A stretch of DNA of 56,474 bases from a virus (Duplodnaviria > Heunggongvirae > Uroviricota > Caudoviricetes): IMG/VR virus record IMGVR_UViG_2880372215_000005. The stretch is one strand, 5' to 3'. The notes below the pieces were generated by a model. It was given only the letters and a program-made list of their open reading frames with translations. It was not told the DNA's origin and made no database searches. Positions 17,641-45,804 of this stretch are shown here, piece after piece. Made by a program: the position numbers and the translations under genes. Each line of letters starts with the position of its first letter. Position 1 is the first letter of the stretch.

Positions 17641-17669
17641 GTATGGGTTTTGTAGAAAAAAAGAAAAAG

Positions 17670-18014
17670 TCACACCGTGACCTGAAACTCCAGGGTTGCA
17701 CGGTAACAGCGGTTTTCCGGAATATAGTCCTGCATTTCACTGACGGATCCCGGGGCCAGCAGCATTATGGCTTCACGGGCGTCCTGACGTATCTGACGCG
17801 CCTGCGTCACAGTCCCGGCATAAACGTCTATCTGCACCGACACTGAGGACTCCGCCTGCCCGCCCATCACGTCCGCAGACACCGATGAAATCAGGCTGAA
17901 AACCACCCACGGAAGCGCCACCGACGGCCTGCCATCCAGCAGGGGGACCACATACGGGTACACCTGCCCGCCGGCAAGATGCGCCAGATAAGGATACAAA
18001 TCCGCCTCCGTCAT
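17670..18014 (-). CDS. tail terminator / tail completion protein (functional analog of lambda U)
   Basis: 114-aa ORF in the U position directly upstream of V; identical copy at 24949..25293. Confidence 0.6.
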   Translation of the reverse strand: MTEADLYPYLAHLAGGQVYPYVVPLLDGRPSVALPWVVFSLISSVSADVMGGQAESSVSVQIDVYAGTVTQARQIRQDAREAIMLLAPGSVSEMQDYIPENRCYRATLEFQVTV

Positions 18015-18457
18015 CGTCTCAGTACCTCATCAATGGCCCGGTTCATCCGCGCAATCGCCACCTGAGCTGCCTGTTCACTGCGCACATCAAACGCCGGGCG
18101 CACAAACGGGTGCGGTGGCATATTCACGGTCCCCATTTCCACAAACCGCCAGTAGAAAGCATTGCGCGGGTTATCCGCCTTCATGGTGTTATCGCTGTTA
18201 CCGGTGTCCGGATTAACACCACGGATATGGACACCGGATTCCATCCCGCCATCGCGGGAGCGCCGGGAAAGGACCACCACATTGCGGCGCAGTTTTCCCC
18301 TGCGTACCGGTGCCCGTGACACCACTTCTTCTTTCAGCACATTCGCACCCGCACGGGTTGCCTCACGCAGCACCCGGTTATTTTCCGCACCACTCAGAAG
18401 CTGCAAATCGCGGCTGATGTCCTCCAGCCCCGAAAAATCCAGCAGGGTTTCGATCAT
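18011..18457 (-). CDS. HK97 gp10-family head-tail joining protein
   Basis: 148 aa MIETLLDFSGLEDISRDLQLLSGAENNRVLREATRAGANVLKEEVVSRAPVRRGKLRRNV... gp10-like; identical copy at 25290..25736. Confidence 0.65.
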   Translation of the reverse strand: MIETLLDFSGLEDISRDLQLLSGAENNRVLREATRAGANVLKEEVVSRAPVRRGKLRRNVVVLSRRSRDGGMESGVHIRGVNPDTGNSDNTMKADNPRNAFYWRFVEMGTVNMPPHPFVRPAFDVRSEQAAQVAIARMNRAIDEVLRR

Positions 18458-18803
18458 TTTTCCCCTCCCAGCCGACAGAGAATTTCCAGACGTCCGCCGG
18501 TCGCATCCGGCACGGGCAGCCCGACAACGTTCAGGATCCGGTCACGCCAGGGACCACTCAGCACATGAAGTCGTGACGCTGCCGTGATTTCCCGACCGGA
18601 CTGACCGCGCACCCAGATGCGGATTTCCGCCTGCGCCATTTCCGCACCGGACTGCATCCGCTCCCGGCTGCTCCTGCCCGGATATCCGCATGAATTTTCC
18701 CGCATGACACCCATTCTTCCGTCATTTCTCCGGCAGCGTTACGGGTTAACACCGGGTTCAGAACACTTATCATCTGTGTCAGACGACCTGCAGATATTGC
18801 CAT
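18454..18803 (-). pseudogene. head-tail adaptor (Phage_H_T_join-like), frameshifted copy
   Basis: two overlapping ORFs (18558..18803 and 18454..18714) together cover the intact 116-aa protein seen at 25733..26083; break is a 1-nt difference in a C-run (ccc vs cccc). Confidence 0.6.
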
Positions 18804-18812
18804 TCCCCCTCC

Positions 18813-19136
18813 TCATAACACCGTCGGACAACGCAAATCGTAAATCAGCACGGAACAGAAAACGGCAGCTCCCCCTGAATCAGTCTTCCCGCTCGCAAGA
18901 TCCGGATTCCGGTACAGCATCCCGGTCAGTCGCATGGCAGCCCCCTTCATCCGGGTTAATGCCTCGCCCGGGATCAGTTCACCGTCCTCACGAATCACCT
19001 TATCCCGGCTGCCCTGAATGTAGGCCAGCAGCACGGCGGTAGCCTGACGAACCTTGTCCATCAGCATGTCATCATCCGCGTCATGGTCGACACGCAGATG
19101 TGCCTTGATCTCTTCCAGTGTCAGTAATGCCGTCAT
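18813..19136 (-). CDS. gp6-like head-tail connector protein (copy A; C-terminus differs from copy B by indels)
   Basis: MTALLTLEEIKAHLRVDHDADDDMLMDKVRQATAVLLAYIQG...; same N-terminal 80 aa as 26125..26418. Confidence 0.5.
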   Translation of the reverse strand: MTALLTLEEIKAHLRVDHDADDDMLMDKVRQATAVLLAYIQGSRDKVIREDGELIPGEALTRMKGAAMRLTGMLYRNPDLASGKTDSGGAAVFCSVLIYDLRCPTVL

Positions 19137-19232
19137 TTTCCGCCTCCTGCATCCCGCCACGTTTTGCAGCCAGGGTCCAGCTGATGAATGAGCTTCTCCG
19201 GGTTTATCACGGTCATACTGTTGCAGTGCCAC

Positions 19233-20336
19233 AGCGAGCCCCCCACGTCACCGTATCACCGGGGTGGTAGGTTTCACCGGCTCTGAACACACCGCGGTAG
19301 AGCATCACCGGCAGGGAAAATGTTTTTTCCGTACGCTGGCCACTGCTCTGCCGGACCACCACAGTGAACACCGTCGCCGTCATGCTGACGTCAATATCGC
19401 CACCCCGTCAACCAGGCATTCCCATCCCCGCATCCCGTGCGTTTTTTCATACGCCCGCCAGAGTCCGCCCTGGTGTGTGGCATACGTGCCCCGGGGAAAG
19501 GATTTTTGATCGTCAATGGCGGGGATATTTCCAGTGCCGTGGCATCACGCCCGTCCTGCGGAGCCGGCAGGGCTCTCACCGCATCCAGAACCGCCTTCTG
19601 CAGAACATCCGGATCGTAGTCACGACCATCACGCGGAACAGGAATATGGCTTACCGCCTCTTCACCATCTGTTCAAGCATCGGACGCACATCATCGGGGT
19701 GAACTTTTGCCGTCTGCCGGTACCGGAATATTCGCGACCGCATCATTCACCGCCTGCTTCAGTACTTCCGGATCATAGTCACGACCGTCACGCGGAGCAG
19801 GGATATGGCTTACCGCCTCCTTCACCATCTGTCAAGCATCGGACGCACATCATCGGGGTGATACTTTTGCCGTCCGCCGGTACCGGAATATTTGCGCAAC
19901 CGCATCATTCACCGCCTGCTTCAGTACTTCCGGATCATAATCACGACCATCACGCGGACAGGGATATGGCTTACAGCCTCTTCACCATCTGTTCAAGCAT
20001 CGGACGCACATCATCCGGGGTGATACTTTTACCGTCCGCCGGCCGGAATATTGCAACCGCATCATTCACCGCCTGCTGCAGTACATCCGGATCATAATCA
20101 CGACCATCACGCGGTACCGGAATGGCCCCACAGCGTCATCCACCATCGCCTGCAGAACCGGATGTACCTCATCCACCGTCACATGCTTCTGTAATACCGC
20201 CGACAGGGAAGCAGTTTCTCTTCAAACGCTTGTGCCTGCGAGGCCATCTTCCCCTCAAATGTGCGCTGTAAATCCGCCAGCACGTGGAAAATTCTTCGCC
20301 CAGTGCACGAATAATGGACAGTTCCCGTTCCGTCAT
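19233..20336 (-). pseudogene. tandem-repeat head-region protein, copy A, disrupted by multiple frameshifts and substitutions
   Basis: region is the counterpart of 26363..27583 but the minus strand is broken into short frames; starts MTERELSIIRALGEEFSTVLADLQRTFEG at about 20336. Confidence 0.5.
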
Positions 20337-20572
20337 TTTCTCAGTATCCCCCTGAACATCGCTTTCACCGCATCATGCTCTGTTTCACTGATTGCCTTAT
20401 TACCGTCAGATGCGCCGTCAGGCAGCTGTGATGAAACTGTTTTCCCGGCAGACGCGAACGGATCCTCACGGGCATCACGACGGGACAGCGCCTCCAGACT
20501 GTAGTTCTGCTGCTGAAGATACAGTGCATCACCGCCGGCAGGGGCGGCAGGTTCTCCGTTTACGGGCCTCAT
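20333..20572 (-). CDS. hypothetical small protein between portal and repeat protein (intact only in copy A)
   Basis: 79-aa ORF MRPVNGEPAAPAGGDALYLQQQNYSLEALSRRDAREDPF...; the copy-B counterpart is frameshifted. Confidence 0.3.
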   Translation of the reverse strand: MRPVNGEPAAPAGGDALYLQQQNYSLEALSRRDAREDPFASAGKTVSSQLPDGASDGNKAISETEHDAVKAMFRGILRK

Positions 20573-20637
20573 TGGGCGTGAGAAGCGTATTTTTCACCGA
20601 TCACCCAGCGTTTTCATGCGCCGTTCGCTGTCCATTC

Positions 20638-21693
20638 TCAGCAGCGTGGTGACATCAAATTCGTACTCTCGTTTTCCCCCGTTTCCAGCGCCTCATCCAG
20701 TAACAGTTCAATGGACTCAATCAGCGTCTGCAGACACTGGGAATAATACTGCTGCTCCAGCGCCTCCACGTTGTCACTGGAAGGCGGGTGGCCAACGCCA
20801 ATCTTGTAGGCCGGGACACGGAACACCGAACAGACAATTTCAGCCGTCATTTTCAGTTGTTCCACCGTCTGCGCATCCACCGGTGAAAACGTCGTGGGGC
20901 TGTATTTTGCCCCGTTGCTCAGTATGGCCGTCTTCCCGGCATTTTCGCCCGTATATCCGCTGTCCCAGTTCCCCTTCAGTTTTTTCGCGTTTTCTTCCGT
21001 AATACTGCCGGGGACCTCAATCACGCCTGATGGTCGCCCGCCATTTCTGAAAAAATACGTCGAATTTGCCTGAATATGATGCCCCTGCATGGCGGCCAGT
21101 CCTGCGGCATACACCGGCGGCAGCCCCACAAGCGGATGAAAAAAACAGTTAAAACGGTCGTGGATCACCTCCCGGGCAGGCACCGTCACCGACTCTGTGA
21201 TCCCACAGTTCCGGTCCGGCGTGATGCGGTAGAACACCTCGCCGTCATCCGCCACCAGAGGTTCAACCCGGTTCCAGTCCAGAATACGCAGTTCTTTGAT
21301 CTGCCCCCGGGGGGTGCGGATTTTCAGCACCACCGTATTGCCGTGACGCAATTTGGAATTCAGCCACAGTTCAAAAAACTGGATGCGATTCTGCTGCGCA
21401 TTAGGACGACGACAGAGACGGGCAGTATCTCCCTGCCGCTTTTCCCGGCGTATTCCCTGTACATCAGTCTGCATCAGGCGAAGCCGCATTTTGGCAATAT
21501 CCTGGGATATCAGCGAAATGCATGAAAACACCGCGTGAAAGGACAAAACGGTTTCCGGATCGGCTTTCACCCCCTGCTGCCAGGCACCGGCAAAAGGCTC
21601 AGCCACCGCCTGAAACAGGGACCGCCAGCCCACTTCTCTTACGTCACGTCCTGATTTCTGGTTTTTTCGGGTTCGCCGCAAAAGGTTCCACAT
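20638..21693 (-). CDS. portal protein, HK97 family (copy A, C-terminus shorter than copy B)
   Basis: portal-like blocks ...ILDWNRVEPLVADDGEVFYRI... and ...VEQLKMTAEIVCSVFRVPAYKIGVG...EQQYYSQCLQTLIESIELLLDEAL. Confidence 0.7.
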   Translation of the reverse strand: MWNLLRRTRKNQKSGRDVREVGWRSLFQAVAEPFAGAWQQGVKADPETVLSFHAVFSCISLISQDIAKMRLRLMQTDVQGIRREKRQGDTARLCRRPNAQQNRIQFFELWLNSKLRHGNTVVLKIRTPRGQIKELRILDWNRVEPLVADDGEVFYRITPDRNCGITESVTVPAREVIHDRFNCFFHPLVGLPPVYAAGLAAMQGHHIQANSTYFFRNGGRPSGVIEVPGSITEENAKKLKGNWDSGYTGENAGKTAILSNGAKYSPTTFSPVDAQTVEQLKMTAEIVCSVFRVPAYKIGVGHPPSSDNVEALEQQYYSQCLQTLIESIELLLDEALETGENESTNLMSPRC

Positions 21694-40121: not shown

Positions 40122-41180
40122 TCATCCGTTACGAATGATTAAATCCTGTACTTCCCGCACCGTCTGCTCAAAACGTTCAGTCTCCAGTTCAACGCCAGTT
40201 GCACGACGTCCCAGCGCCATCGCTGCTTTCACTGTCGACCCCGACCCCATGAAGAAATCTGCAACCAGGTCTCCCGGACGACTGCTTGCGCTGATTATCT
40301 GCTGCAACATTTCTGCCGGTTTTTCGCACGGATGTTTCCCTGGATAGTACTGCACCGGTTTATACGTCCACACATCGGTGTACGGCACCTGCACCGTCAC
40401 ACCGAAATACCGCCGCAGATGCTTATATTCACTCTGCAGCTCCGCATACTGTCGGTTCAGAGAGGCATACGTATCCACCAGCTGGTGGTGGGGCTTTTCC
40501 AGTTCACCCCGCTGATGCTTCTCTTCTGCCACCCGGGCAAACAGTGCCTGTAATTTCAGATAATCGCTTTCGTTCGGCAGCTGCCACTGACCGGCACTGA
40601 ACCAGTGCGACACCATGTTTTTCTTTCCTGTGGCATCTGCAATCTGTTTTGCCGTTATCCCCAGGACAGCGCGCGCATCACGAAAGTAAGCAATCAGCGG
40701 GGCCATCACATGCTGTTTCAGTGTCCTACCCTTCGCCTCATACCCGGCATCTTTCGGACGATACGGCCCCTGATAATGCTCTGCGAACAGAATGCGCTCT
40801 GTGGCGGGGAAATACGCCCGCAGGCTTTCCTTGTTGCACCCGTTCCAGCGTCCGGACGGCTTTGCCCAGATGATATGGTTCAGCACGTTAAACCGCTCAC
40901 GCATCATGATTTCGGTGTCAGATGCCAGACGATGGCCACAGAACAGGTAAAGACTTCCGGCAGGTTTCAGCACCCGCCAGAACTGCGCAAGACACTGGTC
41001 CAGCCACTTCAGGTAATCTTCATCACCCGCCCACTGGTTATCCCAGCCCTCGGGTTTCACTTTGAAGTACGGCGGGTCCGTGACTATCAGGTCAACAGAA
41101 TTTTCGGGTAACGACCGCATAAATTCCAGGCAGTCGGCGTTGATTAACTCACAACTGGATATTTTTACAGTATTAAGCAT
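40122..41180 (-). CDS. DNA amino-methyltransferase (N6-adenine or N4-cytosine), orphan
   Basis: 352 aa with DPPY motif near the N-terminus (VTDPPYF) and AdoMet-binding FxGxG near the C-terminus (DFFMGSGST); no adjacent restriction endonuclease. Confidence 0.8.
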   Translation of the reverse strand: MLNTVKISSCELINADCLEFMRSLPENSVDLIVTDPPYFKVKPEGWDNQWAGDEDYLKWLDQCLAQFWRVLKPAGSLYLFCGHRLASDTEIMMRERFNVLNHIIWAKPSGRWNGCNKESLRAYFPATERILFAEHYQGPYRPKDAGYEAKGRTLKQHVMAPLIAYFRDARAVLGITAKQIADATGKKNMVSHWFSAGQWQLPNESDYLKLQALFARVAEEKHQRGELEKPHHQLVDTYASLNRQYAELQSEYKHLRRYFGVTVQVPYTDVWTYKPVQYYPGKHPCEKPAEMLQQIISASSRPGDLVADFFMGSGSTVKAAMALGRRATGVELETERFEQTVREVQDLIIRNG

Positions 41181-41330
41181 GGATCATTAAGCCTGTCTCT
41201 GATAGGCTCATTCTGCTTTTGCGCAAAGCAGTGGGCCTGAGGTTTGCTTGTGAACCCAACGCATGAGCAGATGGCTGGTGGGTGCCCCTTACACCCACCA
41301 GCCGCCCATTTACCACAAATAAAAAAGCCT

Positions 41331-41528
41331 TCAGGACTGAAGGCGTCTGTAACAACCAAACTGATAGTCTGCCAGACCCGCCATAACCAGCTGGGTCAGT
41401 ATTAACTGGCAGCGTTCGCGTGAAAGGTAAGTATTCTGCGCAATCTCCCCGACTGTCGCCGGGTCGGTAACGCTTAATTCATTAAACACCACTCTGGCGG
41501 TTTCTGTCATATCCTGCTGTTTCAGCAT
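41331..41528 (-). CDS. hypothetical small protein downstream of Q
   Basis: 65-aa frame MLKQQDMTETARVVFNELSVTDPATVGEIAQNTYLSRERCQLILTQLVMAGL...; ORF extends to 41651. Confidence 0.3.
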   Translation of the reverse strand: MLKQQDMTETARVVFNELSVTDPATVGEIAQNTYLSRERCQLILTQLVMAGLADYQFGCYRRLQS

Positions 41529-41651
41529 GTCTTTTTCCCTTTTCCGGTTAACGTGACACACCAATAACTCTTGTCGAAAAAGCCAGCAACCTGAAAGAAC
41601 GGTATTAATAACCACCAGCGAATTTATTGCGCTGCTGTATATTACGGACAC

Positions 41652-41676
41652 AAAAAAACCACCTTCCGGTGGCTTC
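41652..41676 (-). terminator. rho-independent terminator immediately downstream of the Q-like gene (tR'-like)
   Basis: minus-strand hairpin ggaagccaccggaaggtgg followed by tttttttg. Confidence 0.6.
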
Positions 41677-41769
41677 CTTGTGCGAAAAAACTTGCATTTC
41701 GCCTCGCGATACAGCTTTGCGAAGCTTACAGGAATTCAAGCTGTTTCTGCGTAAAAAAGCAAGCTTTTT

Positions 41770-42312
41770 TTATCGAAATGAATCGTGCATAGGTACATAA
41801 AGCATGTGTTCAGCCACGGCTAACCAACCTGCAATACGTTTCTCACATGTGCTGAAACACCATTCCGGGTGAGTACGATTTAAACATTCTGCCATTTTTC
41901 TCTTACTCATTCCCCGTCCTTCGTACCTTTGCCGGAGAATATTGATTAGCCCGGGATATTCCCCAAGCACCTCACTGATAACGCGATCAATAATCAACGC
42001 CTCTGTGTCTGTACAATGTGACAACCAGCTCTTCTGCTTCCCTCTGGTCATATCCCGAAAAAATGCCTCAAGTTCCGGTTTTTCCAGCCCGGATTTCTTC
42101 ATGCTGCGTAAAACCTCATTAACTGCTGTTTTCGTCAGCTTTTTCGAAACCAGTAACCGGTTAAACATATTTCCGGATTTACCCCCACCGATATACGACC
42201 ACCGCCCCCACATCCGTAATTTCCCCTGGATCCAGACTGCTTCCAGCGTGTTCAGGCGTAAATGTTCGCCGCTTTTGCCTGTAATTTCCGGATATATCAT
42301 ATTTACGCTCAC
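41770..42312 (-). CDS. putative late-gene antiterminator Q-like protein
   Basis: 180-aa ORF directly after rusA and directly before a strong terminator, i.e. the canonical Q position; family assignment not verified. Confidence 0.35.
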   Translation of the reverse strand: MSVNMIYPEITGKSGEHLRLNTLEAVWIQGKLRMWGRWSYIGGGKSGNMFNRLLVSKKLTKTAVNEVLRSMKKSGLEKPELEAFFRDMTRGKQKSWLSHCTDTEALIIDRVISEVLGEYPGLINILRQRYEGRGMSKRKMAECLNRTHPEWCFSTCEKRIAGWLAVAEHMLYVPMHDSFR

Positions 42313-42668
42313 TCACTCTCAATTTTGTAAATCTTCACACCCAGCCGTCCACCAGATACTGGCTGACCACGTACAATATTGATTTCATCAAACTGCTCAT
42401 CGTCCATTAACACTCCCGCATGCGTCAGCGCATCCAGCGGTGCTTTCAGAATATTGTCCAGGTCACGACGACGCTTATCCGGTGGCTCTGCAATAATTTT
42501 TATTGCCAGCCGTCCGGACAGGCTTAATTTCAGTCGCTGCTGGCGAACAATAAGCACCACTGCCCGGCGATAACGCTCCCCGGCTTTTGATACAAAATAT
42601 GTGCTGCCACGGCGTCGCCAGTAAGTGTTCACCGTCGGCGGGTAAGGTAAAACCAAATCTATGAGCAT
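42309..42668 (-). CDS. rusA: Holliday junction resolvase RusA
   Basis: 119 aa with ..PPDKRRRDLDNILKAPLDALTHAGVLMDDEQ.. RusA signature. Confidence 0.85.
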   Translation of the reverse strand: MLIDLVLPYPPTVNTYWRRRGSTYFVSKAGERYRRAVVLIVRQQRLKLSLSGRLAIKIIAEPPDKRRRDLDNILKAPLDALTHAGVLMDDEQFDEINIVRGQPVSGGRLGVKIYKIESE

Positions 42669-42680
42669 CAGTCACCTCTT

Positions 42681-43727
42681 TTACCCGAGCACGCCAGTCG
42701 CAAAGGCGTGATCAAGAAAACGAAAAATTAAATCAACCTGGGAACCATGCTTTTCTTCGAACGCCAGCGGATCCGCATGAAGCTCGTTGTGATGCTCCCG
42801 ACACAGCGGTAGCGTGAAAATATCGTGGGATTTTGTTCCCATTCCGCCCTGACCATGACCAATCAGATGATGAGGATCGTCCGCTGGCTTACCACAACAC
42901 GCACACGGCTGTGTCTTTACCCAGCGTGTGTATTTCTCATTTACCCAGCGGCGACGTTTAGGTCGTTTCATGAAGGATTCCGGAGACTCCGGATCAACGG
43001 CAATGCTGACCACCGTCTTTTCCTGTGGTGGGTTTTGCTGGTGGGCGTGAGGCAGCGGCGCAAGATTTTTTGTGCGCTGCTTCAGTATGATGGTGGCGGT
43101 CTGCTCTCCCGGTACGATGTCGCTTTCACGGTACATTGAGCGGATTTTTTCCGCACGCAACCCCAGCGAACGACGTAATACCGCTTCCGGTAGCGCGTCC
43201 GCCACCTGATTGCGGACCGCCCACCAGGATAATTCAGCCAGAGATAATTCACGCTCCTGCGTACCGCTTATTGCGTGACCGATGACGTCAATCATCCATG
43301 CTGACAGGTTTTGATGAGCAAGTTGCTCGAGTGATTCGGATGTCTGGTCACGCAGCTGGTTGTCGCAGTGCCAGCACAACACCATTGCGCCGGTACCATA
43401 ACGGTGAATAACGGTTTCACTGTGATGATAGTCACCATGAGGCCACTGGCAGGATTTGACATGACGCAACAGCCAGTCAGACAGTGCACCAGCGCCACCA
43501 ACAGCACGAATCACACGCTCATTGCTGAAAAACGGCAGTAATGATTTATCCTCCGCCAGCGGCTGGCGAACGGCAGGGACGATGCCGGACGGCAGACCGC
43601 GCATGCTTTTCGGCTCCGGCTCCACAAGCACTCGAGGGTTATGGAATACCTGCATGGATTCACGGCCTGGTTTAAGGACCACCACCCCAAGTTCCGGTAC
43701 CGGAACAGGTCGAAGTAATACCCGCAC
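42681..43727 (-). CDS. DUF968-type prophage protein (YdfU-like) with C-terminal Cys/His HNH-like motif
   Basis: 348 aa; C-terminus ..QPCACCGKPADDPHHLIGHGQGGMGTKSHDIFTLPLCREHHNELH.. Confidence 0.55.
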   Translation of the reverse strand: MRVLLRPVPVPELGVVVLKPGRESMQVFHNPRVLVEPEPKSMRGLPSGIVPAVRQPLAEDKSLLPFFSNERVIRAVGGAGALSDWLLRHVKSCQWPHGDYHHSETVIHRYGTGAMVLCWHCDNQLRDQTSESLEQLAHQNLSAWMIDVIGHAISGTQERELSLAELSWWAVRNQVADALPEAVLRRSLGLRAEKIRSMYRESDIVPGEQTATIILKQRTKNLAPLPHAHQQNPPQEKTVVSIAVDPESPESFMKRPKRRRWVNEKYTRWVKTQPCACCGKPADDPHHLIGHGQGGMGTKSHDIFTLPLCREHHNELHADPLAFEEKHGSQVDLIFRFLDHAFATGVLG

Positions 43728-44554: not shown

Positions 44555-44710
44555 TTACTCCTCAGGTTCGTAAGCTGTGAAGACAGCGACCTCCGTCTGG
44601 CCGGTTCGGATTCGTACCTCGCAGAGGTCTTTCCTCGTTACCAGTGCCGTCACTATGACGATTAAACAGATGACGATCAGGGCGATTAACATCGCCTTTT
44701 GCTGCTTCAT
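44555..44710 (-). CDS. hok: Hok/Gef-family type I toxin
   Basis: MKQQKAMLIALIVICLIVIVTALVTRKDLCEVRIRTGQTEVAVFTAYEPEE (51 aa) nested in a longer mok-like reading frame 44555..44767. Confidence 0.85.
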   Translation of the reverse strand: MKQQKAMLIALIVICLIVIVTALVTRKDLCEVRIRTGQTEVAVFTAYEPEE

Positions 44711-45045
44711 AGCCTGCTTCTCCTTGACCTTTCGGTCCGTAAGAGGCAATCTATATGTGACGAGCATATAGGGGCCTCACTTCGATTTATAGTCGGGTGG
44801 GGCTTTTATCTATCTGCCGTTGGTGTTCATGCCCGAGGCAGATAGCCTCAAGCACCCGCAGCAATCCTACTTAACTCTGCCGTTACAGCAAACCGTTTTC
44901 GCCCGATATGGGAATTCCCATATCGGAATGAATTCAGTTCACCTGGCGAGGCTTAGCGTACAATTTTTTCCGTTTTGTGAGCTGCCCCTACATGCCGCTG
45001 GCGCGGCATCCGGAAAAAGAATCCACGTCCTGAAGGACGAGGATG

Positions 45046-45804
45046 TCAAGTGCCTTTCCTGGTCCAGCCATATTTTTTGAATGCAGGCGCCGCTTCATCG
45101 GTTTGTAGCCATTCTGCAAATCGACGGGTTTCATCATTTGCATCCTGACGTACTGTAATGTTCATATCACGCCATATCACGTAGTCTGGCGCTATTTCCA
45201 CGACATCACCAATTTCTGGATTACTGGCTGCCCAGTCAGCCCAGGTTATCCAGACATCTGCTCCAGGCTGATTCTCAAGAGCCTTACGTGCAGTTCCGCT
45301 ATTGGGCGCATATAAAATAATATTTTTTCGGATTGCGGCGACAGTTTCTATATTCCCTTTACGTCCGGCAATATCTTCCCAGACGCCAGTGCCTGATGTA
45401 TTACTGGTACCACCACCATCATTAACAATTACGCCAATCCCAGGTCTGGTCAGGTCGTCAATACTCCGGATATTTTTAGGATTACCTTTCTTTACCAGTA
45501 AAATACTTTTTCGCAGATAAAGAGGCTGAATATCTTTTTCACTGAAGCTGTCTTTATGGTCCCGAATGATAGCCAGAGCAGATTGTTCTGATGCGCCAAA
45601 CAAGATATCTGCATTTTTTTTGGCATCTTCATTCCATTTGTTCTGTGGGCCGTAATGAACGTTCACTATAATACCTGTTTTTTCGGCATAAAGTTTGGCT
45701 GCATCAAGCAAGGCTGTATGCGGGCCACCAGGACCATACAGATTGATATCAGCATAAGCAGCAGAAGACAGGAATATTAAAAAACCTGCCATTATGTTCC
45801 TCAT
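45046..45804 (-). CDS. secreted periplasmic solute-binding-protein-like protein (ModA/PBP2-like fold suspected), orphan moron
   Basis: 252 aa with signal peptide (MRNIMAGFLIFLSSAAYA); no adjacent permease or ATPase genes. Confidence 0.45.
   Translation of the reverse strand: MRNIMAGFLIFLSSAAYADINLYGPGGPHTALLDAAKLYAEKTGIIVNVHYGPQNKWNEDAKKNADILFGASEQSALAIIRDHKDSFSEKDIQPLYLRKSILLVKKGNPKNIRSIDDLTRPGIGVIVNDGGGTSNTSGTGVWEDIAGRKGNIETVAAIRKNIILYAPNSGTARKALENQPGADVWITWADWAASNPEIGDVVEIAPDYVIWRDMNITVRQDANDETRRFAEWLQTDEAAPAFKKYGWTRKGT

Follow-up and report, generated by a model that had tools for sequence, protein, structure and literature searches.

What turns on the late genes of a lambda-like prophage when the gene at the place of its late antiterminator, Q, is labelled in RefSeq, in its identical copies, 'DUF1133 family protein'? 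The question is raised by a viral stretch of DNA of 56,474 nucleotides (nt) (Caudoviricetes; IMG/VR record IMGVR_UViG_2880372215_000005), here called the window, in which such a gene follows rusA on the minus strand. A first-pass annotation, made from the sequence, had seen there a Q-like gene and then a terminator, a reading that is borne out by an open reading frame (ORF) at 42312..41770 and a hairpin with seven Ts at 41672-41652. It is highly probable that the module is a late antitermination cassette of the type of phage 21 (Q21), with a Q from the DUF1133 branch. All four elements of the cassette, the Q gene, the promoter, the pause element and the terminator, are present and conserved, and late genes lie downstream on the same strand. 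We are equally confident in taking the locus for the late-gene switch of a lambda-like prophage of Escherichia coli O157:H7, built on the plan of phage 21; positions 41500-42400 are 100% identical to several E. coli O157:H7 chromosomes, at least 80% of this stretch is present in 778 of 5,426 complete E. coli genomes, and 509 E. coli records contain the locus at 99% conservation or more.

The predicted protein matches PF06576 (DUF1133) along its full length (367.3 bits, expectation value (E) 1.1e-110, residues 5-180 of a 180-residue form against profile positions 1-176 of 176; gathering score 23.1 bits) and, over residues 73-167, PF06530 (Phage_antitermQ) with 35.1 bits (E 1.4e-8), above the gathering score of 26 bits. 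PF06530 is the Q21/Q933W family, one of the three families of Q (10.1101/651190), and the earlier statement that the protein could not be placed in a known Q family is thereby corrected; the profile search against the Q families that had been proposed as a check came out positive. PHROG 753, an 'anti-termination protein Q-like' family, matched as well, and both Pfam domains were carried by all of the best 120 of the 794 homologues in a first search (E up to 0.001). No NCBIfam model matched the protein, and neither lambda Q (PF03589) nor phage 82 Q (PF06323) was among the Pfam matches at E up to 0.01. Among solved structures Q21 was the best match, followed by sigma region 4 and extracytoplasmic function (ECF) sigma domains. 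A profile search of the PDB was needed here since a single-sequence phmmer search, while also placing Q21 on top, reached only E 0.18; the profile of 20 homologues found Q21 at E 1.6e-4. Comparison by hhalign with five Q21-family proteins gave a probability of 97.2% (E 3e-11, 135 columns), aligning residues 14-176 with Q21 residues 5-152 and taking in both the N-terminal W..G.L..WG.W motif and the C-terminal helix-turn-helix. As judged from sequence comparison, the 176-residue protein encoded at 42300..41770 is homologous to the antiterminator Q21, and the Q assignment, previously made on position, is now supported by PF06576, PF06530, PHROG 753 and the hhalign match.

The ORF as first called, 180 residues on the minus strand, begins with a GTG at 42312 that overlaps the rusA stop codon TGA (42311-42309). 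The frame exists as described, but its likely start is the ATG at 42300 (MIYP..., 176 residues): as RefSeq and every homologue use this codon and the PF06576 match begins only at residue 5 of the longer form, 42300..41770 is the more likely extent of the gene, with the GTG as an alternative. The DUF1133 family is narrow, with 68 clusters (50% identity) among 1.84 billion representatives, and its named sources and locus titles are all Enterobacterales except two, a metagenome-assembled genome of Candidatus Nanosynbacter and a Vagococcus assembly. Some sources already name its members 'antiterminator' or 'Antitermination protein Q'.

The second check proposed with the first-pass annotation, a promoter search in the gap between gene and terminator, was also positive. 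The 97-nt gap after the stop codon reads TTGCTT-17-TTGAAT-5-TAAGCT, with TCCTG as the bases between the last two hexamers; it has the architecture of phage 21 and HK75 and is conserved across the family. The promoter was found by comparing loci, 33 from one-genome-per-species contigs and 80 from viral contigs, which represent 59 distinct downstream sequences. Anchored on TAnGCT, the loci revealed an invariant arrangement of TTGnnn, 17 bp, [T/C]TnAAT, 5 bp and TAnGCT, followed by a terminator, and 57 distinct sequences, drawn from many enterobacterial genera, show this layout next to a DUF1133 gene or downstream of one. A search of both strands of 880 kb of fetched loci for the strict pattern (TTGN3-N17-[TC]TNAAT-N5-TANGCT) gave 107 matches, every one linked to DUF1133; the window has one match, and 200 shuffles had none. 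Directly after a DUF1133 gene stand 103 of the matches; the remaining four comprise two after frameshifted DUF1133 copies of Erwinia and Pantoea and two at a distance, 579 nt (locus L010) and 834 nt (locus L007) downstream. The form of the promoter is kept over offsets of -27 to +834 nt from the stop codon, the -35 TTG being an in-frame leucine codon in 26 distinct sequences, overlapping the stop codon in 15 and non-coding in 13. Transcription is predicted to start at about 41727 (range 41727-41729); the exact register of the promoter and the location of the Q-binding site are reasonably probable.

Two inverted repeats were seen around these elements. One, the 7-bp repeat ACAGCTT/AAGCTGT, surrounds the -10 and pause elements; L002-L004 do not share it, and it was treated as chance. 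The other, an imperfect long-range repeat AAAAAAGCTTGC ... GCAAGTTTTTT (41759-41770 and 41685-41695, minus strand), brackets the promoter and pause region and, in a read-through transcript of the Q gene, would form a stem ending in U6 (fold -49.7 kcal/mol, z -5.1).

The terminator hairpin, CCACC-GGAA-GGTGG (41672-41659) followed by T7 (41658-41652), begins 97 nt beyond the end of the stop codon (41770), which agrees well with the 'about 95 bp' noted before, and about 50 nt past the promoter and TAAGCT. It is a canonical intrinsic terminator, but calling it 'strong' was somewhat generous for a core stem of 5 bp at -7.6 kcal/mol (-13.1 kcal/mol when extended by A/G-U pairs into the T-run). A generic terminator scan, which lists the palindromic tR' stem under the plus strand only, is weak evidence alone: over 3 kb it counts 8 terminator-like sites, where shuffles have 3.3 +/- 1.8. 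Across the family, a hairpin and T-run follow the promoter by about 60-110 nt in 54 of 54 distinct adjacent-promoter sequences scanned, the predicted RNAs being 63-112 nt long. The stems have at least six unrelated sequences, CCACC/GGTGG, ACCCGC/GCGGGT, GGCCGC/GCGGCC and GGCTGCC/GGCGGCC among them, and among terminators of the window's type, substitutions spare the deeper stem and affect the loop (GGAA becoming GTAG or TGAA) or the pair that closes it (L060). Because the terminator is kept in all these loci with unrelated stems, its presence at tR' is, on this comparison, more than chance. The pR'/qut/tR'-like arrangement proposed earlier can thus stand, with promoter, pause hexamer and terminator all present and conserved.

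The terminated RNA of the window is predicted to be about 73-76 nt long. A 5'-proximal hairpin, GCUUCGC...GCGAGGC, between about 41725 and 41700 is predicted when 76 nt of this RNA are folded and also in the fold of L091, but the window's 95-nt fold is without it. A 5'-terminal hairpin that opens with GCU, the RNA copy of the pause hexamer's 3' half, is predicted in several classes (L025, L009, L010, L116-L120) and in phages of the Q21 family, though not throughout the classes and folds. For phage 2851 (Q21 allele), HK75 and GF-2, the hairpin started by this GCU is the terminator itself.

Where, then, would Q bind? The predicted recognition helix of the window's protein is S150-T-C-E-K-R155, and Q21 reads its DNA with H95, A124, R127 and R128, among other residues (PMC6606751). 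The DUF1133 residues aligned to R127 and R128 of Q21 vary by subgroup, in one-to-one correspondence with the spacer's 5' half: EK goes with TTTTACGCA in 26 distinct sequences (window included), RR with AnTGAGC in 20, ES, EN or ET with nnTTGCGCG in 10, and CS with TTTTGCACA in a single one. L010 fits the pairing although its promoter lies 579 nt from the gene. The motif of the RR class is TGAGCA, the sequence of the Q21 subsite, and in L025, the RR representative checked, the distance from its start to the pause hexamer downstream is 26 bp, as for Q21 subsite 1 in phage 2851. The co-variation points to the 5' half of the spacer as the putative Q-binding site, in agreement with the Q21 structures. 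If this model is correct, changing either E153K154 to RR or TTTTACGCA to AGTGAGCA alone should cause a loss, and making both changes together should rescue it. The table of pairings amounts to a simple, testable specificity code for the DUF1133 branch of Q and could predict the cross-talk of co-resident prophages.

A further step, which we consider doubtful, would be to set DUF1133 apart as a branch of its own within the Q21 lineage, one that loads with a different geometry. Its defining features would be a single specificity subsite, kept at 26 bp from the pause element, the absence of the minor-groove loop, a segment in the exit channel (the 'nozzle') that exceeds that of Q21 by about 30 residues, and a -10 that is always without the consensus A at -11. 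Were this so, a single protomer might load, against two for Q21, and two helix residues (EK, RR, ES or CS) together with a matching 7-bp block of DNA could serve to re-programme specificity.

Several observations weigh against the cassette as described. The -10 has a T in place of the near-essential A at its second position (A-11 is always missing in TTnAAT), and the window, with AG at -15/-14, is without the compensating TG of an extended -10 that 42 of the 57 family sequences have; a scan of 40500-43500 with the sigma-70 consensus, in which that A is required, for this reason reported no promoter in the gap. No Q21-like 8-bp direct repeat or second subsite was found in the window's spacer TTTTACGCAGAAACAGC, and the co-variation could partly reflect co-inheritance of helix and spacer as one recombination block, as the two lie within about 100 bp of each other. 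AlphaFold modelled residues 1-100 poorly in two runs, with confidence (pLDDT) of 61 and 55, the second with a larger alignment (34 sequences with identities as low as 40%) that brought no improvement (55 vs 61), and the fold match to Q21 is therefore limited to the C-terminal half. A full-text literature search found no paper mentioning DUF1133 or PF06576 and no experiment on a DUF1133 protein, and we infer the start site, the pause and the binding of Q from comparative analysis. Finally, the endolysin is split into two minus-strand ORFs, 36707..36507 (66 residues, with a signal-anchor N-terminus) and 36510..36175 (111 residues); as these indicate a frameshift, the prophage is probably lysis-defective, and the switch may no longer matter in its host.

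One may then ask what the locus still produces. It is compatible with the cassette, yet unlikely, that the locus now serves mainly to make the constitutive RNA of about 75 nt, which would work as a regulatory small RNA (sRNA) in the manner of StxS, while the Q switch is vestigial. The pR'-terminated transcripts of O157 Stx (Shiga toxin) phages are processed into the Hfq-binding sRNA StxS (PMC7547250); the frameshifted endolysin, the insertion sequences that interrupt the replication and lysis regions of the identical prophage, the conservation of the locus across the 509 E. coli records and the two stable hairpins of the predicted RNA speak in the same direction. On the other hand, a search of Rfam with the predicted pR' RNA at E up to 10 matched no family, returning chance-level hits only, and the conservation within O157 may be purely clonal.

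Less probable still is the same module in another register, with TAAGCT (41728-41723) as the true -10, a start at about 41716, TATCGC (41711-41706) as the pause sequence and TTGCTT/TTGAAT in the Q-binding region. TAnGCT was in fact our first reading of the -10: it has the three most important bases of this element (T-12, A-11 and T-7) in all 57 sequences, where TTnAAT is without A-11, and a hexamer starting with TA occurs again 8-11 nt downstream in several classes. This reading was set aside, and kept as a rival, after the late regions of phage 21 and HK75 and the fixed TTG-17-TTnAAT spacing had been considered. No class has a TTG-type -35 at 16-18 bp upstream of TAnGCT, whereas TTG stands exactly 17 bp upstream of TTnAAT in 57 of 57 and TG precedes TTnAAT in the 42 mentioned; TAAGCT is at the transcript start, not at the -10, both in phage 21 (annotated RNA start) and in HK75 (consensus TTGACA-18-CATAAT); and the downstream TA hexamer varies in sequence and spacing.

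That the protein is a DNA-binding regulator resembling sigma region 4, an activator or repressor and no processive antiterminator, with a hairpin that merely ends the early operon, is very improbable: the sigma region 4 and ECF domains rank next to Q21 as structural matches, the literature yielded no functional data on DUF1133 and RefSeq keeps the family label, but the homology to Q21 is full length and includes the W..G.L..WG.W motif that is not part of the sigma-4 fold, a promoter with a -10-like element stands between gene and terminator in every locus, even when displaced by 579-834 nt, and a conserved promoter would be needless before a terminator at the end of an operon. What we found is neither an unrelated function for the ORF nor a gap devoid of a promoter, the combination named beforehand as speaking against Q.

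Returning to the Q21-type cassette, its working can be sketched with Q21 antitermination as the template (10.1101/651190; PMC6606751). RNA polymerase with sigma-70 would start constitutively at about 41727, and sigma region 2 would re-bind the -10-like TAAGCT, bringing about a pause after some 12-17 nt. In the absence of Q, transcription would terminate at 41652-41658 and release the RNA of about 75 nt. After induction, Q would be made from the early rightward transcript; its helix-turn-helix (STCEKR) would bind TTTTACGCA in the spacer (41756-41748) and dock on the paused polymerase, and the protein, threaded partly into the RNA-exit channel, would narrow the channel so that terminator hairpins cannot form. 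Modified in this way, the polymerase could pass tR', the second terminator (41344-41327) and later terminators and transcribe the methylase, tRNA, esterase, lysis and morphogenesis genes.

The value of these findings is mostly one of annotation. RefSeq gives the DUF1133 locus no regulatory features, and the gene can be annotated as a Q21-type late antiterminator with a defined pR', pause element and tR'. The cassette is not surprising, and the understanding of Q antitermination is unchanged. In O157 and related pathogens, such modules would control expression from induced non-Stx lambdoid prophages, here that of the methylase, the rare-codon tRNAs, the nanS-p esterase and the neighbouring sRNAs.

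The wider setting of the locus is that of a lambdoid late region (coordinates are collected in the table). The order is rusA, Q, promoter and terminator, morons, and then lysis and head genes. In the identical prophage copy, RefSeq lists paa, hokD, DUF968, RusA, DUF1133, a small hypothetical gene, a DNA methyltransferase, tRNA-Ile, tRNA-Arg, a SASA esterase, a holin and a lysozyme, and all genes of this series are on the minus strand in the window; further on, the same strand has the holin, the frameshifted endolysin, Ant, Rz, the small and large terminase and the head genes. The early-right region upstream of DUF968, rusA and Q includes the adhesin gene paa (AcfC family, 45046-45804, minus strand) and the toxin gene hokD (44555-44767, minus strand), both named after RefSeq in the identical copy. 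A pair of rare-codon tRNA-Ile and tRNA-Arg genes is typical of the late regions of Stx phages. Between the tRNAs and the nanS-p esterase, Rfam places two sRNAs, AgvB (an anti-GcvB sponge; 56.6 bits, just over the gathering score of 56) and STnc100 (175 bits), at 39470-39529 (plus strand) and 39531-39739 (minus strand), respectively; this is the site where Stx phages carry stx. Further away, a tandem duplication (17656-24473 and 24935-31782, period about 7.3 kb, 97-100% identity) extends over terminase, portal and head genes and is either real or an assembly artefact.

Table. Elements of the predicted late antitermination cassette and neighbouring features of the window.
Feature	Position	Strand	Basis or remark
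rusA (Holliday-junction resolvase), directly upstream of the Q-like gene	42309..42668	-	Pfam RusA 59.9 bits; PHROG 34; RefSeq RusA family protein
Q-type late antiterminator gene, DUF1133 subfamily of the Q21 lineage	41770..42300	-	176 aa from ATG
Predicted -35 hexamer of pR', TTGCTT	41757..41762	-	TTG exactly 17 bp upstream of TTnAAT in 57/57 family sequences
17-bp promoter spacer TTTTACGCAGAAACAGC	41740..41756	-	Lies between -35 and -10
Predicted Q-binding element TTTTACGCA, 5' half of spacer	~41756-41748	-	Co-variation with helix residues; Q21 element in the same spacer (PMC6606751)
Predicted -10 hexamer TTGAAT	41734..41739	-	[T/C]TnAAT in 57/57; placing relative to -35 and TAAGCT as in phage 21 and HK75
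Predicted sigma-dependent pause element (-10-like) TAAGCT	41723..41728	-	TAnGCT in 57/57; identical hexamer in phage 21 and HK75
Conserved initial transcribed block TCGCAAAGCTGTATCGCGAGGCG	41700..41722	-	Near-identical in loci with Q genes only 58-88% identical to the window's
tR' intrinsic terminator GGAAG-CCACC-GGAA-GGTGG-TTTTTTT	41652..41677	-	Sequence and folding
Small ORF, 65 aa, first gene past tR'	41331..41528	-	PHROG 331; Pfam TrmB winged-helix sub-threshold, E 0.004; RefSeq coding sequence; start and stop codons checked
Second terminator-like hairpin GCCTTCAGTCCTGAAGGC then TTTTTTATTT, overlapping the stop codon of the small ORF	41318..41344 (hairpin 41344-41327)	-	Terminator scan; -12.6 kcal/mol
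Same-strand genes that read-through would express	31206..41180	-	Pfam, PHROG, tRNA calls, RefSeq of the identical prophage
DNA methyltransferase	41180..40122	-	
tRNA genes downstream of the methylase	39849-39925 and 40006-40081	-	tRNA-Arg(TCT) and a CAT-anticodon tRNA (RefSeq tRNA-Ile; Ile2)
nanS-p-type esterase	39382..37472	-	

Two DUF1133 loci have a known regulatory block at the place where the window has its promoter. In L007 (3056-3930, Salmonella) and L005 (3056-3280, E. coli/Shigella), a P1 immI-like block with IsrK (RF01394), the a1/b1 targets and the C4 antisense RNA comes directly after the DUF1133 gene, and a 187-residue antirepressor ORF (anrP) is seen in L007. There, the block is an insert between the DUF1133 gene and its promoter, and since this DUF1133-type promoter lies past the insert, 834 nt downstream, the IsrK promoter (TTGACT-18-TATATT) is probably not the target of the adjoining DUF1133 Q. 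The idea that the downstream promoter makes IsrJ was rejected, there being no isrJ match in L007 3800-4200 at E up to 10. The presence of IsrK and C4 directly after the gene in L005 and L007 had also raised the idea that AntQ of Gifsy-1 is a DUF1133 protein. This was rejected too: the AntQ cloning primer encodes MNTQYLQ, not MIYP (supplement of PMC4825925), and AntQ is therefore another Q allele that gives DUF1133 no direct support.

Compared with known systems, the locus shares with the modules of lambda Q (PF03589) and phage 82 Q (PF06323) the sequence of Q gene, constitutive pR', sigma-dependent promoter-proximal pause, tR' and late genes (10.1101/651190), whereas lambda additionally requires a -35-like element and refolding with NusA (PMC6606751; PMC9388147). 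The predicted constitutive RNA of the window would arise as a by-product of the same mechanism as StxS and lambda 6S RNA, both short pR'-tR' transcripts (PMC7547250), but it has no sequence or Rfam similarity to them. Closer parallels are found among Q21-family phages. HK75 has a curated pR' of TTGACA-18-CATAAT, then 7 nt, TAAGCT and tR', and the same plan is seen in Edwardsiella GF-2, Providencia PSTCR7lys and Klebsiella ST15-VIM1phi2.1 with TACGCT, TAAGCT and TAGGTT, respectively. In these four and phage 2851 (Stx2c), a -35 at or overlapping the Q stop codon is followed by spacer repeats, a -10, 4-7 bp, TA[A/C/G]G[C/T]T and a 5' hairpin or terminator, and DUF1133 loci are laid out likewise. 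The Q proteins of these five phages differ, however, in having PF06530 as their main family and in keeping the long helix-turn-helix loop, and their spacers in having clear direct repeats with an 8-bp period, such as TGAGCC twice or AATGG(C/A)C twice.

The model system itself, phage 21, has a -35, a spacer with two TGAGCA subsites for Q, whose C:G pairs are at -21 and -13, and, in the initial transcribed region, a -10-like sequence for the pause (Shi et al., PMC6606751); in its late region these read TTGACA, the two subsites, AACACT, +1 and TAAGCT at +2..+7, consistent with an annotated promoter and 50-nt RNA. The DUF1133 protein is only about 20-25% identical to Q21. It has some 30 extra residues between the N-terminal WG.W and C.D motifs, in the segment (H2/L1/L2) that in Q21 forms a ring in the RNA-exit channel (PMC6606751), and is without 12 residues of the long helix-turn[loop]-helix loop that enters the DNA minor groove (R113 in Q21), the PDB profile match having a 13-residue gap there. 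The base-contacting pair is E-K in the window and R-R in Q21; in the spacer, TTTTACGCA takes the place of TGAGCA, and no direct repeat of 8 bp can be seen. The distance from the -10 to TAAGCT is 5 bp in the window against 7 bp, and the terminated RNA about 75 against 50 nt. Yet the protein is homologous to Q21 (PDB 6P18, 6P19, 6JNX; PF06530) over residues 14-176, with S-K and T-C motifs at DNA-contact positions, and the locus follows phage 21 in placing the gene just before the late promoter, in its -35, predicted spacer specificity site and weak -10, in the identical TAAGCT at the transcript start and in the short terminated RNA predicted to result.

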